Below the pieces are notes generated by a model that was not told where the DNA came from, ran no database searches, and saw only the letters and a program-made list of their open reading frames with translations. Shown piece by piece: positions 5,753-22,542 of a stretch of 32,000 bases of DNA. The first letter of the stretch is position 1. The number at the start of each line of letters is the position of its first letter. Source of the DNA: Trichodesmium erythraeum IMS101 (GTDB lineage Bacteria > Cyanobacteriota > Cyanobacteriia > Cyanobacteriales > Microcoleaceae); NCBI RefSeq assembly GCF_000014265.1, contig NC_008312.1, positions 3,930,001 to 3,962,000 of the forward strand, written 5' to 3'. A program made the position numbers and the translations under genes.

Positions 5753-6058
5753 TCTAATTCCCTCAATATTTCTTGATGTTCTGCCAAACAGTATCAAAGA
5801 GAAATAATCATCAACTATTTTAGACAGTTTTACTATCTAATTAAGTTTTCAAGAATCTAGTTCTTAAGAAACTTTATTTCTCTGTTATATAAGTAAGACT
5901 GTTTTAGGTAGCAAATTGTGAATTTTTTTTCTTGAGAGTAGACAGAGAAGGAACTTCAACTCTTTCCCTAGGAGACACTGCGCCAATGGGAATACATTTA
6001 ATATTATTTACCTCAAAATTCTATTTTGCCATAGCAAACTTCCCTTGACCCTATATTA

Positions 6059-6788
6059 GGCCAAAGGTATTCTGAAAGCGAGCTTTTGGGCACAAAAAGA
6101 GAACTCGCCATTTTTCTAGTTAGGAAGTAAGCACAACAAATCTAGCAGCAGTCAAACCAGACTAGAAGCTGTGATTCAACCGTTAATTATTTCTGGCCAA
6201 AGGTATCCTATAGGCCTGCTTTTGACCCAAAAAAGCGATCGCGCTATCTTTCTAGTTAGGAAGTAAGCACAACAAATCTAGCAGCAGTCAAACCAGACTA
6301 GAAGCTGTGATTCAACCGTTAATTATTTCTGGCCAAAAGTATCCTATAGGCCAGCTTTTGACCCAAAAAAGCGATCGCCCCATCTTTCTAGTTAGGAAGT
6401 AAGCACAACAAATCTAGCAGCAGTCAAACCAGACTAGAAGCTGTGATTCAACTGTTAATTATTTCTGGCCAAAAGTATCCTATAGGCCTGCTTTTGACCC
6501 AAAAAAGCGATCGCGCCATCTTTCTTGTTAGGAAGTGAGCACAACAAATCTAGCAGCAGTCAAACCAGACTAGAAGCTGTGATTCAACCGTTAATTATTT
6601 CTGGCCAAAGGTATCCTATAGGCCAGCTTTTGACCCAAAAAAGCGATCGCGCCATCTTTCTTGTTAGGAAGTGAGCACAACAAATCTAGCAGCAGTCAAA
6701 CCAGACTAGAAGCTGTGATTCAACCGTTAATTATTTCTGGCCAAAGGTATCCTATAGGCCAGCTTTTGACCCAAAAAAGCGATCGCGC
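6059..6788. repeat. Non-coding tandem array, 136-bp unit x ~5.4
   Basis: Unit starts (GGCCAAAGGTAT..) fall at 6059, 6195, 6331, 6467, 6603 and 6739, with a period of exactly 136. Copy 1 is divergent, copies 2-5 are near-identical, and the last copy is truncated near 6788. Copies 2-6 contain a HIP1 site; divergent copy 1 does not. 136 is not a multiple of 3. Confidence 0.95.
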
Positions 6789-6844
6789 AACTATAAACTT
6801 AAAACTGACTCAAAAACAATAGTTTTAGCTTCAAAAAAACCCCA

Positions 6845-8164
6845 CTAACAGCAGAATTTGTACCTCAGTTTCTCTGCTGAAAGCCTTAGCAAATTATCCG
6901 CTGCTAACCAATTAAACTGTTTGTCTAAAGCTTTTATTTTTCTGTTGCCAAAGTTGTATAAATGTGTTATGTCTTCTAGACCTTTGTGGATTAACCCCCT
7001 GGCCGGTTCCTTATATTGTTGGGCTAGCAGGAAGCCGACTATACTTATATTCATCCTGCCCCTCAGCAATACCGGTACTATATTTGTGCATGTACTCAGT
7101 AGACCACATTTGTGTTGTGTCTTATCTTTGTACCTTTTATTAGCATACTTAAATGATTTCACTAACACTGATGGAGCAACAAGCTCTTGTTTCCTATAGC
7201 CAACAGTCTCTATTTTCCCTAACTCCTCCTCAGCCGTTGCCTCTACTAAGTGCTTTTTCTTAGCGTCCCTAAGTGATTTCACTAACACTGATGGAGCAAC
7301 AAGCTCTTGTTTCCTATAGCCAACAGTCTCTATTTTCCCTAACTCCTCCTCAGCCGTTGCCTCTACTAAGTGCTTTTTCTTAGCGTCCCTAAGTGATTTC
7401 ACTAACACTGATGGAGCAACAAGCTCTTGTTTCCTATAGCCAACAGTCTCTATTTTCCCTAACTCCTTCTCAGCCGTTGCCTCTACTAAAATAGGCTCAC
7501 TTTTCTCTTCAGATAAAACAGCCTCTTGGGGCATCTCAGTAGCAATAATTTCTGTTTCCAACTCTTGAGCTGGAGAATTTTCTACTTTGTGCTCCTCAAA
7601 AATAACTATTTCTTTTTGTTTCTGGTATTCCTCATACCTTTCTCGCAAAATAGCCCGCCCCTGGGAAATACGCTTACGGACATTAGGCTCAGAAATACTT
7701 AACTCTGTAGCTATTTCCTTATAAGAGTATTCTTTAAAAAAGAGAGCAAAAGTTTCCCGTAGTCTCTTTGGCAAATTGTCAATAGCCAAGCGACAAAAAT
7801 CTTCTAACTCTCCGTAGGCAACAGCAAAAAATGGATCTCCTCTTTGAGTCCTCCCATCAGCGCGAGATAGAACCAAGTCTAGATCCTCAACCTTTTGATG
7901 ATAGCGAGCAGACTGCTTCAGTAGATCCATACAAAGGTTATAGGTGAGTTTTGCCAACCAAGCTTTGAAGTTATCAATTGTTTTGTGACACTTTTGTACT
8001 TTTTCCCTAGCCTTCAACATAGCCATACTCAGAGCATCCTCAGCATTTATAGAATTACCTCCCATCCATTTGACACAGCAATGGTAGAGATAGTCTTGAT
8101 GCTTTTGCCACTCTTGCCAAAATAGCCGGTCAATATTTGCAGTTCTATTGTATCTGTTTAACAT
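6845..8164 (-). CDS. ECF-type (group 4) sigma-70 family factor with a ~250-aa repeat-containing C-terminal extension
   Basis: Region 2 pattern: AEDALSMAMLKAREKVQKCHKTIDNFKAWLAKLTYNLCMDLLKQ. Region 4 HTH: LPKRLRETFALFFKEYSYKEIATELSISEPNVRKRISQGRAILRERY. These occupy aa ~1-185. The remainder is acidic linker, three 40-aa repeats and a basic tail. Confidence 0.8.
   Translation of the reverse strand: MLNRYNRTANIDRLFWQEWQKHQDYLYHCCVKWMGGNSINAEDALSMAMLKAREKVQKCHKTIDNFKAWLAKLTYNLCMDLLKQSARYHQKVEDLDLVLSRADGRTQRGDPFFAVAYGELEDFCRLAIDNLPKRLRETFALFFKEYSYKEIATELSISEPNVRKRISQGRAILRERYEEYQKQKEIVIFEEHKVENSPAQELETEIIATEMPQEAVLSEEKSEPILVEATAEKELGKIETVGYRKQELVAPSVLVKSLRDAKKKHLVEATAEEELGKIETVGYRKQELVAPSVLVKSLRDAKKKHLVEATAEEELGKIETVGYRKQELVAPSVLVKSFKYANKRYKDKTQHKCGLLSTCTNIVPVLLRGRMNISIVGFLLAQQYKEPARGLIHKGLEDITHLYNFGNRKIKALDKQFNWLAADNLLRLSAEKLRYKFCC
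7130..7489. repeat. Intragenic in-frame tandem repeat, 120-bp unit x 3
   Basis: Units at 7141, 7261 and 7381. 7261-7380 and 7381-7489 differ at about one base, and copy 1 differs in its first ~15 nt. The units encode LVEATAE[KE]ELGKIETVGYRKQELVAPSVLVKSLRDAKKKH three times. Confidence 0.95.
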
Positions 8165-8165
8165 T

Positions 8166-8292
8166 TTTTTTTAATATATATATAATTAATTTTATCTATA
8201 TACTATATATAATTAATTTTATCTACATTTTTTAATATATATATATAATTAACTTTATCTATATACTATATATAATTAATTTGATCTACATA
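8166..8292. repeat. Nested AT-only direct repeats abutting the sigma-factor start codon
   Basis: Two ~62-bp units, each made of two ~30-bp subunits containing TATATAATTAA(T/C)TT(T/G)ATCTA. That gives four copies in total, starting 2 nt from the ATG at 8164. Confidence 0.85.
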
Positions 8293-8754
8293 CTTAAGTT
8301 AAATAATCTATACAAATTAGATACAATCAGGAAATAAAAAAAATTTTATCATAATTTAATGGCTAAGTTAAGGAGTACATGGCTTTCACCAAGCTGCTTC
8401 TAAGGATTTTAGTTGAATATTTTGGTAAGGGTTAAGGAAAAAAATCTGTCTCCTTAAAAGTTTAGTCAAAAATCAAGAAGGCTATTACTAATTCTCTTGA
8501 GAACTAGCAAGCCCTAATTAAGAATTAGAAATAAACCGATTTGATTTACAAAAATTCATAAAAAAAAAATAATTCTTACGAATAAATACCGTTTATTGTT
8601 TTAGTGCCTAAGTATTCTTAAACTCAAACAATTATTGGCTCATAATTTAGAAAGAACCACCTGATGAGTAGGGATATTTTATGTTGCAGAAAACTCGTAG
8701 CTGTTCACTCCTACAGATAGTTTATAACTTGAAGTTTTTTGCAAGTTCTGTTGC

Positions 8755-8806
8755 TGATATAATACTAATAAATAAATTAATCAATTAATAATTAATTAAT
8801 TGATTA
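8755..8806 (+). promoter_or_regulatory. Candidate extended -10 promoter (TGATATAAT) followed by a 12-bp-arm inverted repeat (candidate operator) upstream of the helicase gene
   Basis: TGaTATAAT lies at 8755-8763. TAATCAATTAAT (8778-8789), spacer aatta, and ATTAATTGATTA (8795-8806) form exact reverse-complement arms 15 nt downstream of the -10. No good -35 is present. The region is AT-rich, so a chance match is possible. Confidence 0.3.
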
Positions 8807-8983
8807 GCAGGTACTGACAACCATGAAAAAAACTAATAACTGATAACTAAACAAAACTTACGCAGCTATCACCATATATAGTAGGATTTTTAATCTTGCC
8901 GAGCACTGGCTGTTAACCTCTCAAACTAGTCTATAATTCCATATGAATACGTAAACCCTGTTGAAAAAAGCAGATAACTGAAA

Positions 8984-11900
8984 ATGACTATATTTCAAAC
9001 TAACCCATCCAACCTTCACCAATTACTCCAAATGGTAAAAGATGGAGATGAACTTAACCTACAAGCAGGAGATTATAAAGCACCTTTTACCATAGATAAA
9101 TCAATTACCATTCGTGGTAGTGGTAGCGATACCGTGATTTTTGCTGCAACCGAAACCCCACTAATAATTACAGCTTCAAAAGTACGAGTGGAAAATTTAA
9201 CAGTAGAGCGAACAGTTGGTGGTGACAATGGGGAAGTTGCTATATTTGCTGAAGCTAATACTAACCCCATTTTGAGTCAGGTGAAATTAAATGGTGTTGC
9301 AGAAAATGTAGAATGGTCAGGAGTAAGTTGGAATATCCCCACAATTCTCGACTTTGGGGAAATAGAAATAAACCGACTGGTAGAACGTGAGTGGGAGTTA
9401 GAACTAGGTTCAGCTTGTCAGGTTTTGTGCGATCTTAATTGGTTACAAGTGCGCTCCAGTTATCTCTCACCGGGGCGACAAAATTTACAGGTTGTCCTGA
9501 ATACTGCCAATATCCCTACTGGTACAAATTTATCTGGCTTGATTTTTCTGTCAGCAGCAGATAGTAGACGGGAATTAGAAGTTACTGCCAAAGTTATTTC
9601 CCCCCTTCCAGTAACTCCAGTTTTAGCAGCTTCCACAAAAGCTTTGCCAGCTAAAGTTTTGAACTCTCAAGATTGGGGTTATCGGTTTTCTGGTAGTGCC
9701 GCAGATAAATTGGTTCGCGCTCAGTTGGGTGAGGCAGCTCTGAAAAAATATCCAGAATTTCCCCAACGTCGAGCCAAAGCAGAAGCATTGATGTCTGAAA
9801 TATTGGATGGAAATTCTCATCTATATTATGTGCGCCGTCAAGCGCCGGGAAGAGAAGAAGGAGAGGAAATTTGGGAACTGACTATGGCGACTGACAGGGA
9901 GGAGCAAGAGTGGGAAAAAACTTTGAAACTTCGCGGAGCAGTAAATATTGATGAAGACAGAGTTTTAAAATTATTATCGGTGCAGTTAATTTCTCAAAAA
10001 GCAGAAAAAGATGAATTTAGTTTAGCTTTGCAAATTCGTTTATTGCCACAACATCAGTATCGACGAGGGATACCATTGGGAGTAGTGCGCTCTATGGGTA
10101 AAATGCCTTTTTTTGGAGACCGTATACCTACAGAGGAGCAACTACCTATTTGGACGACTTTTGTAGAAATAGAGCAACGTATAGCAGAAAAACGTCAGTT
10201 TTGCCTACAGTTTCTGAGTCATAACTATGGTAGTGCAGGGAGAAAGATTACTTTTGAAATTGATGTTTCTTCCGCAACCATTGATGGTACCGCAGAAAGT
10301 GCTATAGACGATCTTGAGTTACGGCGACGACTATTTGAGGCTAAGAACGAAGATATTCAGCTTTTTCAAACTTCTCCTGCAGGTGGTGATGCTAGAGATG
10401 GAGAAAAGTTGGGAGCGATCGCTACTATTGACTGGAAAAAAGGTCAAGTAGGAGTAATGTTAGATAGTGAAATTGTGGAAATTATTAGTCGTGGGAGTTA
10501 TAGAATACCATCCACAGGATTTCTATTTTTTATAGCTTCTGGGGATATAGCTCAAGTGAAACGCAAACGCAGAGCTCTAGAAGATTTACAAAGTGGTCGT
10601 TGTCAGAATCCATATTTGGGAGATTTTTTCTTTGATGCTACCTGTGCGCGAGCTCCGAAGCAGGTAGTTAAACTGCAACCCCAGGATTTATTGTTACCTG
10701 CTGCGAATGTTAATCAAATTGCTGCTGTGGAAACAGTTTTAGCTAGTCCAGATTTGGCTTTAATTCAAGGACCACCTGGCACAGGGAAAACTACTGTTAT
10801 TGCTGAAATATGTTATCAAGTTGCTTTGCGTGGGGGACGAACTTTGATTGCATCTCAGGCAAATTTAGCAGTTGATAATGCTTTGAGTAGATTAGTTCAT
10901 AACCCGGTTATTCGTGCTGTGCGTAAGGGAAAAGCAGAAAAGGTGCAGGAAGAAGGGGAGCCATTTTTGGAACACCGAGTCATTGATACTTGGTTGAAAA
11001 ATACTGCAAACGACTGTGAAAGTGATTTGGATGAGCGGCTACAACGGGTAGAAATTTTACGGAATTTATTGATAGAGTCAGAGAGGTTTAATGCTTATGT
11101 GGAGTTAGAGGAAGTATGGGTAAGTCAGCAGCAAGAGTTGAGCGATCGCCAAACTATTTTGGAAACAAGTCGGGAAGTTTTAGCAAGTGAAGTTTTGCAA
11201 TTAGAAACTGATACAAAGGAATTAAATTTTCTGATGTTGGGATTAGATAATTTGTTAAATTCTGCACCTAATGTTAATTGGCAAGACGAGGAAGTTAAAA
11301 GTTTATTACCCCGTTTACAACCTTATTCTCAGGAGGAAAAATCAGTCAAAGATTTAGTAGAGAATGTGCGTTTAGCTCGAAATATTTCCAGAGATATTGG
11401 TTGGGAAATTCCAGCATTAGGAGCTTTTGGTTTAGCAACTTGGTTTCAAGAAAATTTAGCTATTTTATTGCCAGAATTTTACAATGGGTTAGCTGTAGCA
11501 AAAAAAGTAACTCTGATGATGTCAGAACTAGAAAATTTACAGCAGATATATCAACAGAGTCATAGTAAGTTTGAGCAGCTCAAAAAAGATATTGATAACC
11601 AAGATATAGTTTCGGAAAATCTACAAAAAAATCGCCAAGAATTAGAATCACAAAAAAGTCAAATAGATTTAGTTGTTTCAGAAGTAGGTGCTTGGATAAA
11701 TATTGGTAAAAACCGTATATTTGAGGAATTAAAAAAATGTTGGGAGACTGATCAAGATTTCCAATTAGATTTAATTGGGCTACCAGAAAGTTTGATTAAA
11801 CTTGTTAATAGGAAAAAATTACAACTTTTGCCAGAATATGCTCAACCTCTTCATAGTTTGCCAGATTGGGAAAGAGTGGAAAAAGCATTAAACGCAGAGT

Positions 11901-13945
11901 CAAATCGTGGCTTTCAAAATATCCGAGGCCGAGAACATCGTTTTGATAATTTTTTGCAAATTATTCTAAGTAAACCACCAATAGTTTTGTCAGAAAGAGA
12001 TTATCAAAAGTGGCAAGAATACGCTATATATTTTGAACGTTATTCGCAACTTAACCAAACAAGCCGACAAGGTTTAGTAGAAAAAATCCAACATTTTTTT
12101 GATGAAAATAGGAGCAAATATAGTCTGGTATGGAAAGCAGATAATATGTTAAATACTTTGGCAGAAGTAACAGATAAGATATCCAATAAAATTCTCCATC
12201 ATTCTCGTGAAATGTTACTTCCTATGAAACGAAGAAATCAAAAAGAAATACTAAAAAATAAGGAACATTTAGAAGAAATTAGTGAATTACAGAAAAGCTA
12301 CAAACAAGAACGAGAAGTAGTTGAAGAAGAAGGAAAAAATTTACATCAAAAGCTCGAACAAAAATATCAAGAGTTTATTAACAAATTAACAGGAATAGAG
12401 GTTCAATTAGAGTTTAATCCAGAAATTCATAGTTTAGCTAAAAAGTATCTTGAATCAACACCATTAGAAGTATTAAATGATCAATCAAATTTTGTAGCTA
12501 AAGTAAATTCTTGGGAAAATAACCTCAAGCAACTTGAAAAAATAGCCCCTTTATTTGAGCCTTTTACCGTTCTTACAGATATTAAAAATCTTCTCCAAAA
12601 TAAACTAAATACTGCTCAAGAAAAAGCAGATAAATCTCAGGAAGAACTCCAATCTTCTGAAACAGAAATTAATCAAATTAAAACAGCCTTACAACAAGAA
12701 CCATCAATAACCCTAATCGAAGAAAGAGACTGGTGGAAATCTGCATGGAAAAAAATCCCAGAAAATATCAAACCTAGGGTTTATGAAACAGAAATATTTG
12801 CCATAGAAATTTTGCAGAAAATTAAACTTCAACTGCAAAACTGGCAACAAGAATTAGACACAGAAAAAACATATCTAAATAGCCACCAGAAATTTATCCA
12901 AGACTGGATTGAAAAAATCAAAAAACCTTCAGAAAAAGATAGTAACGATCTGAGAAAAATTTATCTTGATAATGCCAATGTTATTGGTATTACTTGCGTC
13001 CAAGCTGCCAGTCGGAGTTTTGCTGAAGAATTTAATAGTTTTGACGTAGTTATAATTGATGAAGTTAGTAAATGTACTCCCCCAGAAATATTAATTCCGG
13101 CATTAAAAGGCAAAAAATTAGTATTAGTAGGAGACCATCGCCAATTACCACCAATGCTCCATAATAGTACTATTGAAGAAATTGCTGAAGAGATGAAGAG
13201 TACAAAAGAAGAACTAAGCTTTTTAGAAGAGTCGCTATTTAAAACTCACTTTGATACAGCAACAGAAAAAATCAAGCAGATGTTAACTATTCAATATCGA
13301 ATGCACCCGAATATTATGGGAGCAATTAATCAGTTTTATCAACATCGTTTACAATGTGGTATTATTCAACCAAACGAAGAACGCGCTCACAACTTAGGTG
13401 GTGAAATTCTGCAAGATAATAAACATATTATTTGGGTAAAAATGCCACATTTAGAAAGTTTTATTGAACAAAAAGAAGGAACATCACCTTTTAATGAAAA
13501 AGAAGTTGATGTCATTGAAAAATTATGTGGTGAAATGGAGAAATCTTGGCGTATTAAAATTGCGGAGGGCTTTCCCAGAAAAGAATTAGGAATTATTACA
13601 TTTTATAATGCTCAGTTACGACTAATAGACTCAAGAATTAATCCAGAAAAATTTCCATCGCTGCATATTAGAACAGGTACAGTTGACAGATTTCAGGGTA
13701 TGGAAAGACAAGTAATTATTGTGAGTATGGTAAGAAATAATGAGGAGGGAAAAGTAGGGTTTGCTAAGAAGCCAGAACGGGTAAATGTTGCTTTTTCTCG
13801 TGCTCAGGAATTGTTAGTTATTGTTGGGTGTCATGGGTTATTTACTCAACATTATGGAATGGTGGGAAATATGTACTCAGAAGTTTCTGATGTTGTGCGT
13901 CGTCAAGGAGGGTTGATAGAATTTTCTGACATTTTGGGTGAATAA
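8984..13945 (+). CDS. Large Upf1/DNA2-like SF1B helicase with N-terminal beta-helix-like module and a giant coiled-coil insertion
   Basis: 1653 aa. Helicase motifs are: I, LIQGPPGTGKT (nt 10769-10792 for GPPGTGKT); Ia, IASQANLAVDNALSRL; II, VVIIDEVSK (nt 13046-13072); III, LVLVGDHRQLPP; IV, TIQYRMHPNI; V, TVDRFQGMERQVIIVSMVR; VI, ERVNVAFSRAQELLVIVG. The N-terminus GDYKAPFTIDKSITIRGSGSDTVIF..VRVENLTVER resembles right-handed beta-helix repeats. About 700 K/E/Q/L/N-rich residues separate motifs Ia and II. Confidence 0.9.
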   Translation: MTIFQTNPSNLHQLLQMVKDGDELNLQAGDYKAPFTIDKSITIRGSGSDTVIFAATETPLIITASKVRVENLTVERTVGGDNGEVAIFAEANTNPILSQVKLNGVAENVEWSGVSWNIPTILDFGEIEINRLVEREWELELGSACQVLCDLNWLQVRSSYLSPGRQNLQVVLNTANIPTGTNLSGLIFLSAADSRRELEVTAKVISPLPVTPVLAASTKALPAKVLNSQDWGYRFSGSAADKLVRAQLGEAALKKYPEFPQRRAKAEALMSEILDGNSHLYYVRRQAPGREEGEEIWELTMATDREEQEWEKTLKLRGAVNIDEDRVLKLLSVQLISQKAEKDEFSLALQIRLLPQHQYRRGIPLGVVRSMGKMPFFGDRIPTEEQLPIWTTFVEIEQRIAEKRQFCLQFLSHNYGSAGRKITFEIDVSSATIDGTAESAIDDLELRRRLFEAKNEDIQLFQTSPAGGDARDGEKLGAIATIDWKKGQVGVMLDSEIVEIISRGSYRIPSTGFLFFIASGDIAQVKRKRRALEDLQSGRCQNPYLGDFFFDATCARAPKQVVKLQPQDLLLPAANVNQIAAVETVLASPDLALIQGPPGTGKTTVIAEICYQVALRGGRTLIASQANLAVDNALSRLVHNPVIRAVRKGKAEKVQEEGEPFLEHRVIDTWLKNTANDCESDLDERLQRVEILRNLLIESERFNAYVELEEVWVSQQQELSDRQTILETSREVLASEVLQLETDTKELNFLMLGLDNLLNSAPNVNWQDEEVKSLLPRLQPYSQEEKSVKDLVENVRLARNISRDIGWEIPALGAFGLATWFQENLAILLPEFYNGLAVAKKVTLMMSELENLQQIYQQSHSKFEQLKKDIDNQDIVSENLQKNRQELESQKSQIDLVVSEVGAWINIGKNRIFEELKKCWETDQDFQLDLIGLPESLIKLVNRKKLQLLPEYAQPLHSLPDWERVEKALNAESNRGFQNIRGREHRFDNFLQIILSKPPIVLSERDYQKWQEYAIYFERYSQLNQTSRQGLVEKIQHFFDENRSKYSLVWKADNMLNTLAEVTDKISNKILHHSREMLLPMKRRNQKEILKNKEHLEEISELQKSYKQEREVVEEEGKNLHQKLEQKYQEFINKLTGIEVQLEFNPEIHSLAKKYLESTPLEVLNDQSNFVAKVNSWENNLKQLEKIAPLFEPFTVLTDIKNLLQNKLNTAQEKADKSQEELQSSETEINQIKTALQQEPSITLIEERDWWKSAWKKIPENIKPRVYETEIFAIEILQKIKLQLQNWQQELDTEKTYLNSHQKFIQDWIEKIKKPSEKDSNDLRKIYLDNANVIGITCVQAASRSFAEEFNSFDVVIIDEVSKCTPPEILIPALKGKKLVLVGDHRQLPPMLHNSTIEEIAEEMKSTKEELSFLEESLFKTHFDTATEKIKQMLTIQYRMHPNIMGAINQFYQHRLQCGIIQPNEERAHNLGGEILQDNKHIIWVKMPHLESFIEQKEGTSPFNEKEVDVIEKLCGEMEKSWRIKIAEGFPRKELGIITFYNAQLRLIDSRINPEKFPSLHIRTGTVDRFQGMERQVIIVSMVRNNEEGKVGFAKKPERVNVAFSRAQELLVIVGCHGLFTQHYGMVGNMYSEVSDVVRRQGGLIEFSDILGE

Positions 13946-14847
13946 AATAATTGAGAGTTTGATCAAAATTATATTATAATTTGATTTGCCAAGCACCTAT
14001 AGTATAGTTACATTCTAAATTAAATATTTTGCTAAATTCCTAAAAATTATCACATATCTTTTAAGATAATGGTAGTTAAATTTAGTAATTCAATTAGATG
14101 TCTATCAAGCTAATTGAGGGTCAGTTGGGTTTAAGGCTATTTTATGGCTTATTCTAGGAACTAGTGATACTTACAGCTAAGGATATAATCAGGGTTTTAG
14201 CTTATCCAAAAATCAGATTAATTGAGCTAAAATATGGAATTTTGCTTGAGGCAGGTATTCTATAAAATAGGGAAAGTAATCTTTAAATTACTAAAACAAG
14301 TTAAATTAGTGGTAGTATCAAAATATTTATAGAATTAGTAATATATTAAATGAGTCTTTTGTTTTAATTAGGAGTGCTCTGGAGAGAAAATAAAATGTTA
14401 TTGGCACCGGATTTGCTTTTAGTTGGTAAATACCGTTATCAACTAGAATATTTAGATATAAATAAAGTCGGTACTCATGCTAAGTCTATTCTCAAATGTG
14501 ACCTGATACAACCTGAATTATTACTATTTTTAATTTAGTTGTGCTTTGGTAGATAATATTATTAATAAATAACTACTATAAACAGGGAAGTGGAAAGATA
14601 ATTTTGCTTTACTCTTTTAGATAAAATTATCTTAATTCGGTGAAAAAAAATGTTTTATCTTCAGCCAAGCCTGCAAATGTTATTAAATTCTCTTTCCTCA
14701 TAACTCCTAACTTTAATCTTCCTAACTCCTAAGTCCTGAGTCTTCATTAACTATCTAATTATACCAATTAGACTTGATTTAATATTACAAGGAAAGGAGC
14801 TGTAACAACAATATCCAATTTTATTAAGTAACGCAAAATTAAGACAA

Positions 14848-16692
14848 ATGTTTTTACAATCTTCTACTAAATATATCAGCCCAGAGTTAAATAATTTAGC
14901 CGATAAAATTGAAAAAGATAGCCCTGGAATATCAGTTTTTGCTGCTCGTCAATTTTGTTATAAACTATATCAAACCCCAGTTCAAATTGAGATAATCAAA
15001 GAGAGAGATTTGAATATTCTTGAGGAATTTATTCTCAGAGCAAGTATTGAGTTTAATCCTCCACCAACTGAAGTAGAATTAGCACAAATACTAAAGTTAG
15101 ATCCTATATTTATTCAGAACACTACTAATACTCTTCAATCTCTACAAACTTTAACTATAACACCATCAGATTCTAGAATTAGCATAACTTCTGAAGGAAA
15201 AGAATTTTATACAAAAGGTTCCTTGCCACAACCCCCAGAAAATAAAATTATTTATGCTATTACTAACCCTCTTTCTGAAGAAATTAATTGGCAACTTTCG
15301 GGTTTAAATTCTAAATCTCCAGAACTGCCAAACTTAGCAGATTTTATAACCTTTGAAAATACAACTCCTGAAATTGCTAATTTTACTATTGAAGAACTAA
15401 AAAAGGAAATAATAGACTCTAATTTAGGTATTTATTTACCAGAATCAGGAAAAATAATTAGAGATATTTTCGTAAATACAGATGGGGAAAAATCTATCTG
15501 GAAAGCTATTTCTATTTTAGTTATATTTGATATAATTGAAGAAAAGTTGATTTTACAAGCAAGAGAAGGAAATAAAATTTTAGAAAGGGTATCAAATCAG
15601 TTACAGGAAATGATAGAACGAGGAGAAATTTTGCTCAATGAATTATGTGGTTTACCTCCTGAATCTATAGCCTCTCAAACAGAATCAATTTTAGATTTAA
15701 AGAACCAAAAAGTTGAGGAGAGACTCCAAAAAATTCGGCAACAAGGAATTGAAATAATTAAGCAAACTAGAGAGCAGGGAAAGAAAAAATTACCAAAAAA
15801 ATCAGAATTTATTTTGTTGCGCGATCGCGAAATTAGACCAGAGTTTTTATCTACTCTAAAAGCAGCAACTCAACAGATTTTAATCTATTCTCCTTGGGTA
15901 ACTGAGGAAGTAGTAGATGAGGAGTTTATACAGCTTTTACAAAAGCTAGCAAATAACGGGGTGTGGATTTTAATGGGATATGGAATTGCAGAAAAACAGG
16001 AAAAAGAAACTCAAGCAATGTCCCCTAAAGTTGAGGAAAAATTATTAACAATTAGAACTCCTGAAGATTTACCAGCAGCTCAGATATTTTGGTTAGGAAA
16101 TTCCCATGCTAAAGAGGTATTAGTAGATAGAAAAGTTCATTTATCTGGCTCTCATAATTGGCTTTCTTATCGAGGAGATAGAGGTTTTCGAGGAGAGACA
16201 GCTTATCGAGTCACAAATCTTGATACTGTTGGGTCGGCTTATGAATATTTGCAGGCCAGATTTCAATTTCATGCTAAAAATTTATGGGAGTCTGCAGTAT
16301 CAAGTAGGGATATTAATTTGGCTGTTCAATCTGTTTGTATTTGGGGAGCTTTAGGTATGGCAGAAATGGCGTTTCAAGAATTACAATATCATAATTGGAT
16401 TGAACTTTTTCCAATGTGGTTAAAAGTAGTTATTCAGGGGTTGAGGTCGAAACAAATTTTACTAGATGAGCAGATTTTTAAGCAAGCAATTTCTTGGTTA
16501 AATATAGTTGATACATCATATCAAAATATACAAGATTTACGCTCTGGATGGCAAGGAGTTATAGGAGAGATAGCTCGTCAAAATTCCCAAGCAGCTTTAA
16601 ATTTATTAAATGAGGTAGCATGGGCAGAATTTATCCGTTTAGAAATTTCCTTAACAGACACCCCAGAAAAATTTATAAAAACGCTAAATTAG
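14848..16692 (+). CDS. Single-HKD phospholipase-D-family (Nuc/Zucchini-like) nuclease-domain protein with long N- and C-terminal extensions
   Basis: 614 aa. It has one complete HxK(x)4D(x)6GSxN motif, SHAKEVLVDRKVHLSGSHNW (H420, K422, D427, G434-S-H-N437; nt 16105-16158). This is preceded by the PLD-fold pattern ILIYSPWVTEEVVDEEFIQLLQKLANNGVWILMGYG. The N-terminal ~320 aa include a helix-rich, possibly winged-helix segment (LEEFILRAS..TEVELAQILKLDPIFIQNTTNTLQSLQ). Confidence 0.8.
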   Translation: MFLQSSTKYISPELNNLADKIEKDSPGISVFAARQFCYKLYQTPVQIEIIKERDLNILEEFILRASIEFNPPPTEVELAQILKLDPIFIQNTTNTLQSLQTLTITPSDSRISITSEGKEFYTKGSLPQPPENKIIYAITNPLSEEINWQLSGLNSKSPELPNLADFITFENTTPEIANFTIEELKKEIIDSNLGIYLPESGKIIRDIFVNTDGEKSIWKAISILVIFDIIEEKLILQAREGNKILERVSNQLQEMIERGEILLNELCGLPPESIASQTESILDLKNQKVEERLQKIRQQGIEIIKQTREQGKKKLPKKSEFILLRDREIRPEFLSTLKAATQQILIYSPWVTEEVVDEEFIQLLQKLANNGVWILMGYGIAEKQEKETQAMSPKVEEKLLTIRTPEDLPAAQIFWLGNSHAKEVLVDRKVHLSGSHNWLSYRGDRGFRGETAYRVTNLDTVGSAYEYLQARFQFHAKNLWESAVSSRDINLAVQSVCIWGALGMAEMAFQELQYHNWIELFPMWLKVVIQGLRSKQILLDEQIFKQAISWLNIVDTSYQNIQDLRSGWQGVIGEIARQNSQAALNLLNEVAWAEFIRLEISLTDTPEKFIKTLN

Positions 16693-17028: not shown

Positions 17029-20000
17029 TTATCTATAATCCAACAAAACCGGGATTTTGATTATGAACTCGCTACCTTTTCCTAGTTGAGAAATACAATA
17101 CAATTCTCCATTATGTTGCTCGGTAATAATTTGATGACTTATTAATAATCCTAATCCAGTTCCTTGACCAACTGGTTTAGTAGTAAAAAAGGGGTCAAAC
17201 ACTTTTTCCCGCACTTTTTCGCTCATTCCTATCCCATTATCAGCAATAGAGATTTGGACAGTTTTGTCGTTGTGTACCTCAGTAGTTATCCTAATTTCAG
17301 GAACAGCGGGACTGTCTGCCCTTGTTAAAGCATAGATCGCATTGGTAATAATATGCCAAAAGACTTGATTTAGTTGACTAGGGTAGCAGTTGATGAGAGG
17401 CAGTTTTCCGTAGTTTTTAATCAGAGTAATATCAGGACGACCCTTTTGATCTTGACAGCGATGTTGCAAGATCATTAACGTGTTTTCTAAACCTTCATGG
17501 ATATCTATCTCCTTACATTCTGATTCACCAAGACGAGAGAAATTGCGCAAACCGAGGACAATCTGGCGAATGCGATCGCTTCCATTTTGCATTGACTGGA
17601 ACAAGCGTTTTAAATCCTCACACAAAAAGTCTAGCTCAACCTCTACTAATTTATCTTGTATTGCTGGACTAGACTGGGGAAAGTTCTCTTGATAAAGGTC
17701 TATTAATTCCACTAAATCTCCAAAATATTCTTGAGCATGAAAAATATTCCCAGAGATAAAAGTAATGGGGTTGTTAATTTCGTGAGCAATTCCCGCTACC
17801 ATTTCCCCTAGAGAAGAAATTTTTTCAGCCTGAATTAATTGAGCTTGAGTACGCTGCAATTGTTCTAGGGTAGCCTGTAATTGTTGGTTATTTTCTTGTA
17901 GTTTCTGGGTTCTGATTTCCACTTCAGCCTCCAGGTTACGACTATAGTTTTCTAAACGACGATAGAGCAGAGCATTTTGGATAGAAATGGCTGCTTTTGC
18001 ACTCAAAAGATTGATAATTTCTATGGAAGATGAGGTAAAAACTTGAGTACATAGATAGTTTTCCAGATAGATAATACCGATAAGTTTTCCTTGGTTAAGC
18101 ATTGGGGTGCAACAAAGGCTTTTCGGCTTCTGTTGAGTAAAATATGGATCGCTAATGTATACATTCTCTTGGTCGAAATAATTAATCAATATCCTTTGTC
18201 GAGTTCGTTTTACCTTATTAATAATATTAACTGGTAGAACATTACTTAGATTTGGGGAGGCCTTCAAGAAACGACACTTGTTCTGATCACAGATGACAGA
18301 AATTTCCCAAGTACCAAAGTTATCTACAACTAGAACACCTTTATCTGCTCCAGCATTTTCGATAAGAACGTACATTAATTTAGAGAGCAAAACCTCAAGT
18401 TCAACTTCCTCAGAAAGAGCATGGAAGGCTTTAATGGCAGACTTTAGATCTAGTAATTGAAGAGAATTTTCTAGGGAGATGCTAGTAGTGGAGCTAATAG
18501 GTTTGACCTGTTGAAGGATGGGGTTAAGGAGTTGAGGATAGGTTTGTTCTAGTTGCTCAGTTTTAGCTTTGCTACCCCAATAAGCATATCCATAATAAGC
18601 CTCTTGCATATAACCAGCAGCAATTTTCTCTTTGCCCCATACAAGATAAAATTTTGCTGCCAGTTCGTTAGCCAGAGCTTCTTCCTGGAAATATTCATTT
18701 TCTTTTGCTCCAGCAATAGCGCGGTCGTAAAAATCTCCTGCTTGATACTTTTTACCTAAAACTCGATACTTTTCAGCTTCCACTAATTGCCATTTATGCA
18801 AATAATTCATCGGCGCATATTCTGACCAAAGGTGTAAATTATTCTGATTTTCTTGTACTTGTTGCAGTGAACTCCCAATATCTGAGGCAGACTCTTGAAG
18901 AGTAGCTAAAGTAATTAAAGAATCATAAAAATAAAAGCCCGCTTCACCAACCGTTCCCAGTCCTCCAGACAAATACTTTTTAGCTGCAATAGTATCAGCT
19001 TTTGCTGAAAGGATATCCCCTAAAATAAACTTTAAAATTCCCCGATGGAGATAATAATGAAAAATTTGAGCTAGATCATGGGATTTTAACATTTCAGTCA
19101 TCCAAGGCCTTCTATCATTACTGTCCTCAATTTCCAGATGAATATTTTCTGGATTTCCTAAGAGCAATACTGTTGCTTCCCAAAAAATCAAACAATATCT
19201 TTCAAAGTGTGACAGCTTGAATTTAACTGTTACCTCAATATATGCTTGGATTTGAACTACTAACTCTTTCAATGGTTTACCACACCAGAAAGAATTGAGA
19301 CAAAATCCGTAACTATAACGACCGAGATATTCAACTTTGCCTATTTCAAGAGCAGCCTGATAACCTGCTTCAAAAATTGACAATGTTTCCTGGAGGTGAT
19401 TTTGGTGATGATACAAACATAATCCAAGAGGGATGAAGGTTATAGCGGGAATATTTTTATCCTTGGCGTTAGAAGCTAAACGATAAGCTAATTCGCCCAA
19501 TTGATTGCTTGTATAAATATCTTTCTTAAAGTTCAGCATAAATATTCCATAAACCACATATCCAGTCGGTGAAAAGATACCATTACCATACTGAATTGAT
19601 AATTTAGTTTGTAAACTACCCAACAAAGCATACAGAGGAGAACCTGCTAGATAACAGCACGTAATCATTCTGGTAGATATTTTCAAAATCGCTAATTTTT
19701 CAGGATTTACCATAACTGGCAGGTGTAATAAATCCTCTATAGATCGATCGCCTATCAAAGCTTGAGTTTCTTCAATTTCATGCTCCAATTCAACAGAGGT
19801 AATAGTCTCGGGAAACTTAACTCCAAACTCTTCTAAAATTGACTTACCATAGGCGATCGCTTCTAGCAAATTATTTTGGGTAGTTAAAGCTTGGATTCTA
19901 ATTATATGACTGTCTACTTGATCTAATAAAGTTTTTCCATGCTCAATAACTGCATCTATCTGTTGATTCATTCCCTGAAAATCCCCATAAATTACAGATG

Positions 20001-22464
20001 CTTCTGCTACCAATTCATGTAATTGTAACATGGTTACATATTTTCGTTGCCAAGCTTTCCTACCAAGTAAGTCAATGCCAATTACTCCATACTCCCTTGC
20101 CGCTTTGTAGGCAGATCCTCCTTTAGCTTTACGACAAGCAACAAGATTAAGTTCCGCTAGTTCATCCCGTGCAACTTGTTCAGTAATTAAATTAACTCCA
20201 TAATTGAGTTGATTAACAATTTCAAAAATGTATCGTTCTCTGGTTTCTGGAGATATCTGCTCTAGGAGTAATTGCCCAATGTGATAATGGTTAGCTTCCT
20301 TTTGATCATCAGGAATTAGAGAATAGGCAGCTTGTTGGACGCGATCATGCAAAAAGCGATACCCCACATTTTCAATATATTCATAATCTACCTCTGTTTC
20401 ATCATTGCTGGTATAAAATTTATATACTTGACTTTGTAGCAAAATTAACTCTGCCTCTAAAGCTGACCACAAAGCTGTCATCACATCTGATTTCAATTGC
20501 TTGGCCACAATTGCTAATGTATCTAAGTCGAATTTGTTGCCAATACAAGCTGCTAATTTAAGTACCTGCTGAGTTTCCTTGGGTAACTTCAGCAACTTTT
20601 GTGACATAAACTCCACCACATCATCAGTGAGAGAAAGATCATTAATTTGGATTATATCACATTCCCAATAGCCCTGTTCGCGATTAAAAGTAATGTATCT
20701 ATCCTGATATAATCCTTTGAGGAACTGAGTTGTAAAAAAAGGATTTCCTTGAGTTTTCCGATTAATTAATTCCGTGAGTGGTTGCGAGATATCAGTTGAA
20801 CAATGTAAAGTATCAGCTACTAATTGATTCATATCGCGGAAAGCAAGAGATTGAAGAGTAATAGTATTAACAGTTGTACCCAGTTGTTTCAACTCCTCTA
20901 GCGCCAAAATCAATGGGTGTACTGATGAAACTTCATGATCTCGATAAGCTCCCAACAATAGTAGATAACTATTATCCTCCATCAACAGTTTAATCAATTT
21001 CAGAGAAGCTGTATCCGCCCAATGTAGATCATCCAAGAAAATTACCAGGGGATGTCTTTTATCTGTGAAAACTTCAATAAACTTTTGGAACAAGAAATTA
21101 AAACGATTCTCCACTGCATTGCCTGATAGTTCTGGTACAGCAGGTTGTTTACCAATTACTAACTCTAGTTCTGGAATCACATCAATTAATACTTGTCCGT
21201 TCTGCCCAACTGCCTCCAAGATTTTCGTTTTCCATGCAACAAACCGAGCATCAGGCTCAAACAACACTTGTTCCATTAAATTTCGCAGTGCTTGTAAAAA
21301 TGCTGACAAGGGAACATTTTGATTAAATTGGTCAAATTTACCTTGAATAAAGTAACCATGTTGAGCAGTAATTGGTTTATGAACTTCATTGATCACAGCA
21401 GTTTTACCAATACCCGAAAACCCTGCCAGCAGCATTATTTCAGATCTTGGAGCCCTATCCCCTTCTCCTTCAGATACCCGCTCAAAAGCAGCTAACAACT
21501 GCTTAACTTCCCTTTCCCGTCCGTAGAGTTTTTCAGGAATGAGGAAGTGAGTGCTAAAATCTAGCCTTCCTAATTGAAACTTAGCTATTTCTCCTCTAGC
21601 TTCCCATTGTTGCAAACAATTTTCTAGATCATACTTCAAACCCAATGCACTTTGATAACGATCTTCAGGATTTTTCCCCATCAATTTCATGACAATGTTA
21701 ATTACCATCTGAGGTATTTGTGGAATACAAACCCCATTTCTTAATTCCTTGTTCTCAAAGATTGGTAATTTAGCAATATGGCAATGTACTAACTCCATTG
21801 GATCATCCGTGGTAAAAGGTAACTCACCTGTAAGTAGTTCAAAGAACGTAACACCCAAAGAATAAAAGTCCACGCGATAATCAATACCCCGGTTCATCCG
21901 CCCAGTTTGTTCCGGAGAGATGTAGGCCAGAGTTCCTTGTAGCACATTGGGGTGGGTAACTTCCTGTTGTGCTTTGGGCAACAAACTAGCAATATTAAAA
22001 TCAATCAGTTGAATTTGTTGAGTTTTGGGATAAATCAAGATATTGGCGGGTTTAATATCTTTGTGGATGATGCGCTTTTGGTTCAGATAATGTAGAGATT
22101 CAGTTAGTTGAATAGCAATTCTCAAAAATTCCCCAAGGTTTTGTTCTAATTCAGTATCAACACTTTTCAAACCCCCATGCCAATAAGATGAAAGGGCGAT
22201 CGCTCCATTATCTGGCATCACTAAAGCATAACCATTACCGTAACGTTCCAGAGCAAGAGGTTGTAAAATATTGGGGTGTTGCAGATGGCGACTTAGCATA
22301 TATTGGTTGTGAAATTGTACCAGCTCATTAAATTTGGGGTTAACATTGGCTAAGACTTTGATAATTACAGGTTTGTTGTCACTATTGCGTGTACCTCTAT
22401 AAACTTCTGTTCTTGTTCCTTGGTAGATAATTTCAGTTATATGGTAACCAGTTAGAGTAATCAT
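17029..22464 (-). CDS. Multidomain Ser/Thr protein kinase - AAA/STAND-like NTPase - helical/TPR-like - GAF - histidine kinase (HstK-type dual kinase)
   Basis: 1811 aa from ATG 22464; the track start is TTG 22488. Kinase motifs: VIIKVL, HKDIKPANIL (HKD codons at nt ~22057-22065), LIDFNIAS (DFN in place of DFG) and GTLAYISPEQ. NTPase: Walker A LLAGFSGIGKTAV and Walker B VIFLDDLHWAD. A GAF-like block spans LIENAGADKGVLVV...GKLIGIIYLEN. Histidine kinase: H-box MVAGIAHEINNPITF, N-box HIITNAIYAL, G-boxes ADNGIGM and GTGLGL. Confidence 0.9.
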   Translation of the reverse strand: MITLTGYHITEIIYQGTRTEVYRGTRNSDNKPVIIKVLANVNPKFNELVQFHNQYMLSRHLQHPNILQPLALERYGNGYALVMPDNGAIALSSYWHGGLKSVDTELEQNLGEFLRIAIQLTESLHYLNQKRIIHKDIKPANILIYPKTQQIQLIDFNIASLLPKAQQEVTHPNVLQGTLAYISPEQTGRMNRGIDYRVDFYSLGVTFFELLTGELPFTTDDPMELVHCHIAKLPIFENKELRNGVCIPQIPQMVINIVMKLMGKNPEDRYQSALGLKYDLENCLQQWEARGEIAKFQLGRLDFSTHFLIPEKLYGREREVKQLLAAFERVSEGEGDRAPRSEIMLLAGFSGIGKTAVINEVHKPITAQHGYFIQGKFDQFNQNVPLSAFLQALRNLMEQVLFEPDARFVAWKTKILEAVGQNGQVLIDVIPELELVIGKQPAVPELSGNAVENRFNFLFQKFIEVFTDKRHPLVIFLDDLHWADTASLKLIKLLMEDNSYLLLLGAYRDHEVSSVHPLILALEELKQLGTTVNTITLQSLAFRDMNQLVADTLHCSTDISQPLTELINRKTQGNPFFTTQFLKGLYQDRYITFNREQGYWECDIIQINDLSLTDDVVEFMSQKLLKLPKETQQVLKLAACIGNKFDLDTLAIVAKQLKSDVMTALWSALEAELILLQSQVYKFYTSNDETEVDYEYIENVGYRFLHDRVQQAAYSLIPDDQKEANHYHIGQLLLEQISPETRERYIFEIVNQLNYGVNLITEQVARDELAELNLVACRKAKGGSAYKAAREYGVIGIDLLGRKAWQRKYVTMLQLHELVAEASVIYGDFQGMNQQIDAVIEHGKTLLDQVDSHIIRIQALTTQNNLLEAIAYGKSILEEFGVKFPETITSVELEHEIEETQALIGDRSIEDLLHLPVMVNPEKLAILKISTRMITCCYLAGSPLYALLGSLQTKLSIQYGNGIFSPTGYVVYGIFMLNFKKDIYTSNQLGELAYRLASNAKDKNIPAITFIPLGLCLYHHQNHLQETLSIFEAGYQAALEIGKVEYLGRYSYGFCLNSFWCGKPLKELVVQIQAYIEVTVKFKLSHFERYCLIFWEATVLLLGNPENIHLEIEDSNDRRPWMTEMLKSHDLAQIFHYYLHRGILKFILGDILSAKADTIAAKKYLSGGLGTVGEAGFYFYDSLITLATLQESASDIGSSLQQVQENQNNLHLWSEYAPMNYLHKWQLVEAEKYRVLGKKYQAGDFYDRAIAGAKENEYFQEEALANELAAKFYLVWGKEKIAAGYMQEAYYGYAYWGSKAKTEQLEQTYPQLLNPILQQVKPISSTTSISLENSLQLLDLKSAIKAFHALSEEVELEVLLSKLMYVLIENAGADKGVLVVDNFGTWEISVICDQNKCRFLKASPNLSNVLPVNIINKVKRTRQRILINYFDQENVYISDPYFTQQKPKSLCCTPMLNQGKLIGIIYLENYLCTQVFTSSSIEIINLLSAKAAISIQNALLYRRLENYSRNLEAEVEIRTQKLQENNQQLQATLEQLQRTQAQLIQAEKISSLGEMVAGIAHEINNPITFISGNIFHAQEYFGDLVELIDLYQENFPQSSPAIQDKLVEVELDFLCEDLKRLFQSMQNGSDRIRQIVLGLRNFSRLGESECKEIDIHEGLENTLMILQHRCQDQKGRPDITLIKNYGKLPLINCYPSQLNQVFWHIITNAIYALTRADSPAVPEIRITTEVHNDKTVQISIADNGIGMSEKVREKVFDPFFTTKPVGQGTGLGLLISHQIITEQHNGELYCISQLGKGSEFIIKIPVLLDYR

Positions 22465-22542
22465 AATTATGTTCGAGATAATTGACAATTTGATATTGTT
22501 TTATTGACTTTCCAGAATTCTACTTATACGATAGTTTTTTTG

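Follow-up and report, generated by a model that had tools for sequence, protein, structure and literature searches.

Mokosh systems of types I and II protect Escherichia coli, and mutations in the Walker A motif or the HKD motif abolish this defence (bioRxiv 10.1101/2022.05.11.491447). Type I, a common system, is made up of a helicase, MkoA, and a phospholipase D (PLD) family protein, MkoB; according to Millman et al., MkoA carries a Ser/Thr kinase (STK) domain (bioRxiv 10.1101/2022.05.11.491447). Earlier work has compared Mokosh to the MOV10L1/PLD6 pair of the piRNA pathway (bioRxiv 10.1101/2022.12.12.520048). Mokosh II cleaves single-stranded DNA (ssDNA) in vitro, and its protein, MkoC, is monomeric (bioRxiv 10.1101/2025.07.10.664194). 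A 2025 survey reported complex formation to be general for nuclease-NTPase defence systems, with Mokosh type I resisting purification. Here, we analyzed a Mokosh-related gene pair in a 32,000-nucleotide stretch of Trichodesmium erythraeum IMS101 DNA (NC_008312.1, positions 3,930,001 to 3,962,000, forward strand), which we call the window and to which all coordinates refer. The pair consists of the following open reading frames (ORFs):

8984 to 13945, plus strand: mkoA-like gene, ORF of 1653 amino acids, Upf1-family superfamily 1B (SF1B) helicase without a kinase domain.
14848 to 16692, plus strand: mkoB-like gene Tery_2555, ORF of 614 amino acids, winged helix-turn-helix (wHTH)/PLD nuclease protein.

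The two genes are co-directional and 902 bp apart, and the ORF scan found no intact gene between them. The 1653-residue product is 100% identical to an IMS101 protein annotated as "Superfamily I DNA and RNA helicases", and the 614-residue product is Tery_2555 (100% identity); current annotations of both proteins read "hypothetical" or "AAA domain-containing". Against the PADLOC profiles, the helicase matched MkoA (PDLC03920, 4e-107; PDLC03921, 2e-99), and the PLD protein matched MkoB (PDLC03922, 8e-36), its residues 42-471 aligning to positions 14-445 of the 610 in the profile. Profiles 03920 and 03922 also match the homologs from Oscillatoria, Microcoleus, and Nostoc. Because of these matches, the pair is, on profile evidence, a relative of Mokosh type I, a known system. 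A Mokosh relationship had been proposed in the first-pass annotation, which was made from the sequence alone, and both ORFs and every motif quoted there were recovered in place. Membership in Mokosh type II was rejected, as the helicase and the PLD domain are encoded by two separate ORFs and the MkoC profile matches are weaker (6e-33 for the helicase, 3e-12 for the PLD protein). Our literature search found no mention of Tery_2553 to Tery_2555 and nothing treating Mokosh specifically in cyanobacteria.

Both proteins were then cut into segments, and each segment was scanned against the PADLOC profiles. Helicase residues 1-570 (except for a weak match just before Walker A) and 690-1225, as well as PLD protein residues 470-614, were left unmatched by the Mokosh profiles. 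These large unmatched segments speak against a full-length match to canonical Mokosh components. We read the locus as a divergent, kinase-less, cyanobacteria-specific lineage of the Mokosh type I defence system, and we give this reading a probability of about 0.62. The homology, domain anatomy, conservation, synteny, purifying selection, and locus history presented below are what the analysis shows. The features of the helicase are as follows:

8984 to 9319, plus strand: residues 1-112, short right-handed beta-helix (NCBIfam NosD match and AlphaFold2 (AF2) strands).
9344 to 9598, plus strand: residues 121-205, Ig-like (PapD/ASH-like) beta-sandwich (AF2 and Foldseek).
9701 to 10693, plus strand: residues 240-570, alpha/beta domains with no kinase signature, conserved throughout the cyanobacterial family.
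10769 to 10792, plus strand: Walker A motif GPPGTGKT (K602), beginning at residue 596 and invariant in 29 homologs.
11051 to 12658, plus strand: residues ~690-1225, insertion in RecA1 predicted to form an antiparallel coiled-coil arm (AF2; no PADLOC or Pfam match).
11858 to 12121, plus strand: residues 959-1046, four-helix RecG-type module, homologous to the N-terminal extension of cyanobacterial RecG.
12659 to 13891, plus strand: residues 1226-1636, remainder of RecA1 and RecA2 (MkoA PDLC03920 positions 708-1095, 3e-86).

The helicase core is complete. Downstream of Walker A, the motifs IIDEVS (1357, with Walker B residues D1359/E1360), GDHRQLPP (1383), QYRMHPNI (1437), DRFQGMERQ (1568), and NVAFSRAQ (1601) were located. 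Pfam detects AAA_12 as well as AAA_11, the latter in two pieces (575-630 and 1208-1393). The segments matching MkoA are residues 577-685, on the Walker A side of RecA1 (1.5e-21), and residues 1226-1636. By sequence, the nearest solved relatives of the core are Upf1 (3e-36), IGHMBP2, Nam7, DNA2, Sen1, and ZNFX1. The MkoA of a Vibrio type I system is 35% identical to the Trichodesmium helicase and can be aligned over the core only.

The helicase had been described at first pass as lacking a kinase domain, and this was borne out. Pfam scans of the full-length protein and of its segments gave no Pkinase match even at E<1, and the kinase-bearing N-terminal part of both MkoA profiles found no match in the protein. 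This absence is a tested negative, as the same profile region was picked up in the Vibrio MkoA and in a kinase gene neighboring the Trichodesmium pair.

The place of the kinase is taken by a distinct N-terminal module. The first-pass annotation had seen a beta-helix-like and an Ig-like unit here, and several lines of evidence agree with it. Residues 11-102 match the NosD beta-helix family in NCBIfam (6e-9), and an AF2 model of helicase residues 1-1200, built with 29 homologs (mean predicted local distance difference test (pLDDT) score of 71.6), places strands at residues 1-112 (pLDDT ~80) and a sandwich at residues 121-205 (pLDDT ~84). Foldseek matched this sandwich to the HYDIN PapD-like domain (2e6j) and to Ig-like modules of glycosidases; both units lie outside the MkoA profiles. 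The beta-helix is found in the Oscillatoriales-type homologs and in the homolog on plasmid pCHL69-1 (44% identity) and is missing in the Nostoc type. The following region (residues 240-570), where the AF2 model has alpha/beta domains at 240-540, is 41-54% identical across the family; it had no Pfam match in the segment scan, and Foldseek gave no assignment. Its last ~85 residues match MkoA PDLC03921 positions 927-1008 weakly (E 0.005), and residues 519-636 align to residues 1000-1118 of the Vibrio MkoA. A GC step was also noted inside the gene: the N-terminal 2 kb is at ~41%, and the insertion and the C-terminal half are at ~30-34%, the step falling where the N-terminal module plus Walker A gives way to the coiled-coil insertion.

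The second peculiarity of the helicase is the insertion in RecA1. The distance from Walker A to Walker B is 756 residues in the Trichodesmium protein and 470-810 in the family, compared to ~265 in the Vibrio MkoA. In the segment scans, residues 640-1210 matched nothing, and the part of the insertion left unmatched by the MkoA profiles is ~540 residues. The three long arm helices of the AF2 model, each of 86-109 residues, span residues 665-760, 814-922, and 1055-1140 (pLDDT 80-90), and Foldseek, run with the 1-1200 model, found only a generic resemblance of the arm to those of Rad50, MukB, and JetC. The ~700-residue coiled-coil insertion announced at first pass is thus roughly right in size, but it is not all coiled coil, as residues 959-1046 are globular.

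This globular part, a RecG-type module within the arm, is the most novel concrete finding of the analysis. Helicase residues 958-1068 match the NCBIfam RecG equivalog NF008170 at positions 7-116 (2.9e-15). When residues 940-1080 were used as the query of an exhaustive phmmer search, 72 proteins came up, the ~85-residue module being nearly always N-terminal in them, and those long enough to judge have RecG_wedge and DEAD domains downstream of it. It should be noted that this search returned RecG-type N-termini only and not the helicase family, which we take to be a property of the library; the module was confirmed using a local hidden Markov model (HMM) built from RecG-type N-termini only. This HMM matched the Trichodesmium helicase (3e-30) and one helicase subfamily (1e-21 to 1e-35) from Trichodesmium, Dapis, Okeania, other Oscillatoriales, and Nostocales, in which the module always lies ~363 residues past Walker A. 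The HMM search did not find it in the Microcoleus/Kamptonema paralogs or in two plasmid copies. Pfam has no model for the module, and our literature search found nothing on the N-terminal extension of cyanobacterial RecG. A separate 417-residue protein, P0241, holds two to three copies of this ~88-residue module.

The second gene of the pair encodes the PLD protein, with the following features:

14968 to 15762, plus strand: residues 41-305, canonical MkoB N-terminal region with a winged-helix-like unit and a beta-rich domain (MkoB profile).
15805 to 16215, plus strand: residues 320-456, single-HKD PLD nuclease domain (PLDc_2, MkoB and MkoC profiles, Foldseek).
16105 to 16158, plus strand: HKD signature, H420 to N437 (motif scan).
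16219 to 16689, plus strand: residues 458-614, all-helical family-specific C-terminal domain (AF2, pLDDT 90-96).

The protein contains exactly one HxKx4D motif, at H420, followed by GSHN, and a second HxK at position 475 is without the D. Residues H420, K422, D427, and N437 are invariant across 38 homologs. The PLD domain (residues 324-463) matches MkoB positions 307-437 (6e-20) and also MkoC positions 997-1119 (1e-12), and the protein belongs to MkoB profile 03922, not to 03923. Upstream of this domain, residues 41-305 match MkoB positions 13-295 (1.5e-12), so the N-terminal region is a normal MkoB feature. The ~320 extra N-terminal residues announced at first pass are therefore not extra, the profile being 610 positions long and the protein 614 residues. 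In contrast, residues 470-614 had no PADLOC or Pfam match in the segment scans, and the helical domain that they form is conserved across cyanobacteria.

An AF2 model of the PLD protein (38 homologs, mean pLDDT 83.5) shows a winged-helix-like unit at ~57-113 (helices 57-68, 75-82, and 86-98; strands 102-105 and 110-113) and a long helix (271-309) preceding the PLD domain. Searching the alignment by sequence against the PDB found nothing. With Foldseek, the N-terminal region resembled TrmBL2, and the PLD domain matched NucT (6ehi, 5e-7), Nuc (1byr, 2e-5), and Zucchini (4ggk, 4.5e-5), as well as PLD3 and FAM83; NucT and Nuc were the best structural matches, with a TM-score to target of 0.67-0.70. 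A nuclease-like fold with a single complete HKD, as read at first pass, was thus recovered. We rejected a lipid-metabolizing PLD of the cardiolipin or phosphatidylserine synthase kind, as there is only one HKD, no synthase match in NCBIfam or Pfam, and the top Foldseek matches are nucleases. No homolog of the PLD protein was found in phage genomes. The MkoB-type N-terminal region also occurs alone (residues 1-283, 31% identity) on a plasmid of Nostoc sp. C052 (NZ_CP040275.1, 91489-92325), annotated beside a DarT ADP-ribosyltransferase family gene and an AAA-domain protein, so that this module of MkoB may serve in further defence contexts as well.

A scan of species-representative genomes with the PLD-protein alignment returned 354 relatives, and the best 80 of these 354 were all cyanobacterial. 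For synteny, we counted the 61 loci whose upstream sequence extended over 6 kb or more. The helicase gene was upstream on the same strand in 51 of these, so that the homologs are syntenic across cyanobacteria; the other 10 had no helicase within 10 kb. Among the 51 linked loci, the stop and start codons overlap by ~20 nt in 21, the genes are 51-1000 bp apart in 11, 1-3 kb apart in another 11, and >3 kb apart in 8. The ~900-bp separation, listed at first pass as an architectural peculiarity, is consequently not a feature of the family, where overlap is the commonest arrangement (21/51), and we return to its origin below. Microcoleus, Tychonema, and copy 1 of Oscillatoria sp. PCC 10802 have two small genes between helicase and PLD, one for a 73-residue ribbon-helix-helix (RHH)/RelB-like protein (weak NCBIfam match) and the other for a 121-127-residue protein with a hydrophobic C-terminus, probably with two transmembrane (TM) segments; these loci look like a four-gene version of the system.

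Across Trichodesmium, Dapis, and Okeania, the distance between the two genes runs through 0.66, 0.9, 2.2, 3, and 17.6 kb to different contigs. The 17.6-kb case is Dapis M229, where copper-resistance genes lie in between, and the genes on different contigs are those of Okeania; both genes are intact in each case. The helicase and PLD proteins diverge in parallel (Mantel r = 0.89), both genes have a dN/dS of 0.21-0.35 with the unlinked genomes included, and both proteins are 99-100% identical among T. erythraeum strains and metagenome-assembled genomes (MAGs).

Some members of the family are found on mobile elements or among defence genes. Full-length pairs are carried by a conjugative Aulosira plasmid and by the mobilizable plasmid pCHL69-1, where the order is hsdR, an overlapping helicase-PLD pair, HicB, XerD, and several toxin-antitoxin modules. 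In Dapis M229, the helicase is preceded by a type IIG restriction-modification gene and one for a NACHT protein; the helicase is flanked by DarT-Macro, Uma2, and IS605 in Okeania and by HicAB and TnpB in Microcoleus. Oscillatoria sp. PCC 10802 (NZ_KB235948.1, 2.12-2.14 Mb) has two paralogous helicase-PLD sets in tandem with a Uma2-family gene between them, one set with the small genes and the other with the RecG-type module.

Other members are anchored in the chromosome. In ~48 species of Nostocales, Scytonema, and Oscillatoria, the PLD gene is followed by genes for GCS2 (glutamate-cysteine ligase family 2), a SpoU methylase, and a LysM/M23 peptidase. PLD distances track those of GCS2 and SpoU (Mantel r = 0.96, compared to 0.95 between GCS2 and SpoU), and the PLD protein diverges about twice as fast as these neighbors. 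Between helicase and PLD, the anchored loci hold 0-8 kb of variable DNA, such as a 941-residue PPC/RTX gene in Nostoc C052. In the Trichodesmium window, the flanks of the pair encode plastocyanin, cytochrome c, flavodoxin, an M23 peptidase, and an ECF sigma factor.

These observations bear on the main alternative that we considered, in which a Mokosh-descended pair was domesticated as a genome-maintenance or nucleic-acid-surveillance machine of filamentous cyanobacteria, possibly acting on R-loops, stalled forks, aberrant transcripts, or transposon intermediates. In this scenario, the helicase would be brought to the sites or partners of RecG by its RecG-type module, and the PLD protein would resolve or degrade the displaced strand. 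Such a role would fit the fixed position of the PLD gene beside GCS2-SpoU-LysM/M23, the divergence in step with GCS2 and SpoU, the persistence of intact copies of both genes, still under purifying selection, where they have become unlinked (Dapis M229 and Okeania), the housekeeping-like neighborhood in Trichodesmium, the all-cyanobacterial top of the list of relatives, and the presence of the RecG-type module in exactly the chromosomally anchored helicase subfamily. However, a dN/dS of 0.21-0.35 together with about twice the divergence of GCS2 and SpoU is more like defence than like a core repair gene, and some copies are carried by conjugative or mobilizable plasmids or lie within a textbook defence island. 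Defence loci typically show such tandem paralogous sets and such a changing complement of accessory genes (RHH+TM, Trypsin-GUN4, STK-GUN4), and vertical inheritance is compatible with defence. We consider domestication unlikely, though by no means negligible. A more specific form of it, in which an SMC-like arm tipped with the RecG-type module docks on RecG structures or a RecG partner (stalled forks, R-loops, ssDNA coated with single-stranded DNA-binding protein) and a dimeric PLD cuts the displaced strand, seems to us rather doubtful. If it were true, what the machine senses would be intermediates of replication or recombination, whether from phages, transposons, or the host, rather than phage RNA, and a prokaryotic defence module would have been fixed in one lineage for hundreds of millions of years.

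We then examined the DNA between the two genes, in which these features were identified:

13946 to 14847, plus strand: 902-bp spacer, apparent deletion scar of a Trypsin_2+GUN4 gene (blastn collinearity with Dapis M126).
13946 to 14117, plus strand: conserved ~170-nt element directly after the helicase stop, kept in MAG_R02 and Dapis M126.
14334 to 14420, plus strand: remnant of codons 1-29 of the deleted trypsin-like gene (tblastn, 65.5% identity, 7e-6).
14440 to 14514, plus strand: remnant of codons 571-595 of the deleted trypsin-like gene (tblastn, 52% identity, E 0.01).

In Dapis M126, the helicase-PLD interval holds an intact 595-residue Trypsin_2+GUN4 gene (locus L009, 8050-9837, plus strand). 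The Trichodesmium spacer aligns with positions 7771-10000 of this locus in collinear blastn blocks of 79-88% identity:

Spacer nt 1-172, L009 7771-7941, 82%: directly after the helicase stop.
Spacer nt 274-475, L009 7935-8136, 85%: 5' flank and codons 1-29.
Spacer nt 495-663, L009 9760-9928, 79%: codons 571-595 and 3' flank, a 169-nt block with which the tblastn remnant of these codons is collinear.
Spacer nt 871-902, L009 9969-10000, 88%: just upstream of the PLD start.

Relative to Dapis M126, ~1.6 kb (codons 30-570) is deleted in IMS101. By this collinearity, a third gene has been deleted here in a lineage-specific event that left the 902-bp spacer as its scar: the Trypsin+GUN4 gene would have pushed helicase and PLD apart in the history of Trichodesmium and later have been lost. 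The spacer has no ORF >54 residues, no Rfam match at gathering or permissive thresholds, and no tRNAs. Tblastn found no trace in it of the 73-residue RHH-like and 121-127-residue two-TM genes of the relatives, which belong to a different paralogous subfamily. Dapis M172 carries a Pkinase+GUN4 gene in the same slot on the opposite strand (L010, 7914-9362, minus strand), and the slot in Dapis could be an insertion hot-spot or an accessory cassette.

The ~170-nt element behind the helicase stop retains 82-88% identity to its counterparts in Trichodesmium MAG_R02 and Dapis M126; the remaining spacer diverges. It contains a promoter-like TTGAGA-N18-TATAAT at 13951-13980 (11/12 match to a sigma-70 promoter), and the PLD gene is probably now transcribed from it. 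A scar of this kind, the progressive separation of the two genes across Trichodesmium, Dapis, and Okeania, and our failure to find a terminator or a clear operon signal at the locus could all suggest that the pair is a decaying relic in Trichodesmium, its genes uncoupled and its ORFs transient or serving unrelated solo functions. Set against this are the full length of both ORFs with all catalytic residues intact, the 99-100% identity among T. erythraeum strains and MAGs, the dN/dS of 0.25-0.35 across the clade, and the conservation of the promoter-like element right behind the helicase stop, which together make a relic quite improbable.

On the other side of the PLD gene lies the kinase gene mentioned above:

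17029 to 22488, minus strand: Pkinase + AAA_16 + GAF + HisKA/HATPase protein of 1819 amino acids, convergent with the PLD gene.

This protein could in principle supply the missing STK in trans, which would turn the pair into a three-gene Mokosh. Its kinase domain matches the STK part of MkoA PDLC03920 (positions 16-285, 1e-28), and two close relatives (L007 and L012) also have it next to the PLD gene. But generic kinases of the PD-T4-6 type match better (3e-44), the 1819-residue gene is convergent with the PLD gene, and the adjacency is limited to the Trichodesmium/Okeania clade and absent from ~70 other loci, including the plasmid versions. Pkinase-AAA_16-GAF-HisKA multidomain proteins are, moreover, common in filamentous cyanobacteria. 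We rejected this very improbable arrangement: the adjacency is local synteny only, and the similarity is generic.

Except for this generic kinase similarity, the window contained no other PADLOC match, and no Argonaute gene was found in it. Insertion sequence (IS) debris adjoining the pair was not found, nor were IS-like inverted repeats; the sole IS remnant found in the window lies ~13.7 kb from the pair:

30400 to 30618, plus strand: degraded IS200/IS605-family TnpB fragment, ORF of 72 amino acids (Cas12f1-like/TnpB TNB domain, 1e-7).

With housekeeping flanks, no further PADLOC match, and one distant TnpB fragment, the view of the surroundings as an accessory island, put forward at first pass, is weak. 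Several repeats surround the ECF-sigma-like ORF (6845-8164, minus strand): a tandem array of 136 bp x ~5.4 at its 3' end (6052-6895), an in-frame 120-bp x 3 repeat inside it (7130-7489, 40-residue repeats), and an AT-rich 27/63-bp repeat just upstream (8161-8317). At ~1000-2500 of the window, 1.5 kb is at 45-48% GC, compared to ~30-40% elsewhere, and this segment has no ORF >80 residues and no Pfam, Rfam, or tRNA match.

The assignment to Mokosh type I has to be weighed against a number of findings that do not favor it. The STK domain described by Millman et al. for type I MkoA is absent from the Trichodesmium helicase. Coverage by the Mokosh profiles is only ~45% for the helicase, where it is limited to the core, and only ~70% for the PLD protein, the PLDc_2 match (residues 334-438) barely clears the Pfam cut-off (27.7 bits against 27), and BLASTP found no similarity between the PLD protein and Vibrio-type MkoB. 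The Trichodesmium window provides no defence-island context, and neither does the anchored site in Nostocales. Operon coupling is dispensable, since both genes are intact though unlinked in Dapis M229 and Okeania, and the way PLD tracks its GCS2/SpoU neighbors indicates vertical inheritance at a fixed site, which is atypical of mobile defence cargo. Taking these points into account, a divergent Mokosh type I lineage is still the reading that we favor.

Under the Mokosh reading, the MkoA-type helicase would have lost, or never had, its Ser/Thr kinase domain, with the beta-helix, Ig-like, and alpha/beta module in its place. We infer that the two proteins would act as a complex against phages and that the substrate would be an invader nucleic acid. 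The helicase would use ATP (K602, D1359/E1360) to translocate 5'-3' on invader single-stranded nucleic acid, which may be phage RNA, ssDNA, or replication or R-loop intermediates, and would be guided by the arm and its RecG-like module to a structure, or to a partner, that RecG recognizes as well. Because there is one HKD per chain, the PLD protein is predicted to dimerize, two HKD motifs forming one active site as in Nuc and Zucchini, and would cut the exposed strand. The RecG-type module, shared with a known helicase, is a testable lead on what this helicase recognizes. Given this module and the ssDNA specificity of Mokosh II, with which it is in line, DNA intermediates are at least as likely a target as RNA, the one originally proposed.

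The system type, its defence role, and the piRNA parallel are known already, and standard HMMs recognize both proteins. What is new is the kinase-less architecture with a distinct N-terminal module, the arm with the RecG-type module, the anchored vertical inheritance, and the spacer as a deletion scar. The gain is incremental and not categorical, since the system type and its eukaryotic parallel had been described. Nevertheless, a large kinase-less lineage of diverse sequence shows that helicase and PLD can form a partnership in which the kinase is dispensable, and the family offers natural variants for dissecting the system, which differ in whether they have the RecG-type module, in whether the RHH and TM genes are present, and in whether the two genes overlap or are unlinked. 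The pair would represent a widespread, unannotated candidate immunity system in cyanobacteria, relevant to bloom-forming Trichodesmium and symbiotic Nostoc.

Compared to Mokosh type I, as exemplified by a Vibrio alfacsensis locus (L084) and by E. coli ETEC H10407, the Trichodesmium pair has in common the co-directional Upf1-like helicase and PLD genes, the MkoB N-terminal region, and the single HKD. The Vibrio MkoA consists of NERD, Pkinase, and helicase domains and is encoded beside an integrase, its gene overlapping that of a 529-residue MkoB. The Trichodesmium helicase, in contrast, has neither a Ser/Thr kinase nor a NERD domain; it has an unrelated 570-residue N-terminus and, in RecA1, the insertion of a ~540-residue coiled-coil arm with the RecG-type module, and its PLD partner has a C-terminal domain outside the profile. 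The cyanobacterial pair is also often vertically inherited and chromosomally anchored, whereas the Vibrio system adjoins an integrase. With Mokosh type II (MkoC, YjhR of E. coli), the pair shares a homologous helicase core and PLD domain as well as the lack of a kinase, but MkoC is one polypeptide with a C-terminal PLD domain and without the MkoB-type N-terminal region or the coiled-coil arm.

More distant comparisons concern single proteins or the domain pairing. Cyanobacterial RecG (NF008170) shares the ~88-residue four-helix module at ~40% identity; there, it is N-terminal and precedes the wedge of a superfamily 2 helicase, whereas in Trichodesmium it sits in the middle of the insertion of an SF1B helicase. 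Nuc of Salmonella and NucT of Helicobacter are ~155-residue stand-alone proteins, secreted or periplasmic, while the Trichodesmium PLD domain is part of a 614-residue protein, in which a wHTH-containing N-terminal part precedes it and a helical C-terminal domain follows. MOV10L1 and Zucchini (PLD6) likewise combine an Upf1-clade helicase with a single-HKD PLD nuclease. This parallel, drawn in the first-pass annotation with MOV10, stands for the pairing of domains but not as a novelty; the resemblance of the Trichodesmium pair to the piRNA pathway is at the domain level only, and NucT and Nuc are closer to its PLD domain than Zucchini is. Finally, Gabija, Hachiman, and Azaca also join a nuclease effector to a larger helicase or NTPase, and they differ from the Trichodesmium pair in the helicase superfamily or in the nuclease fold.

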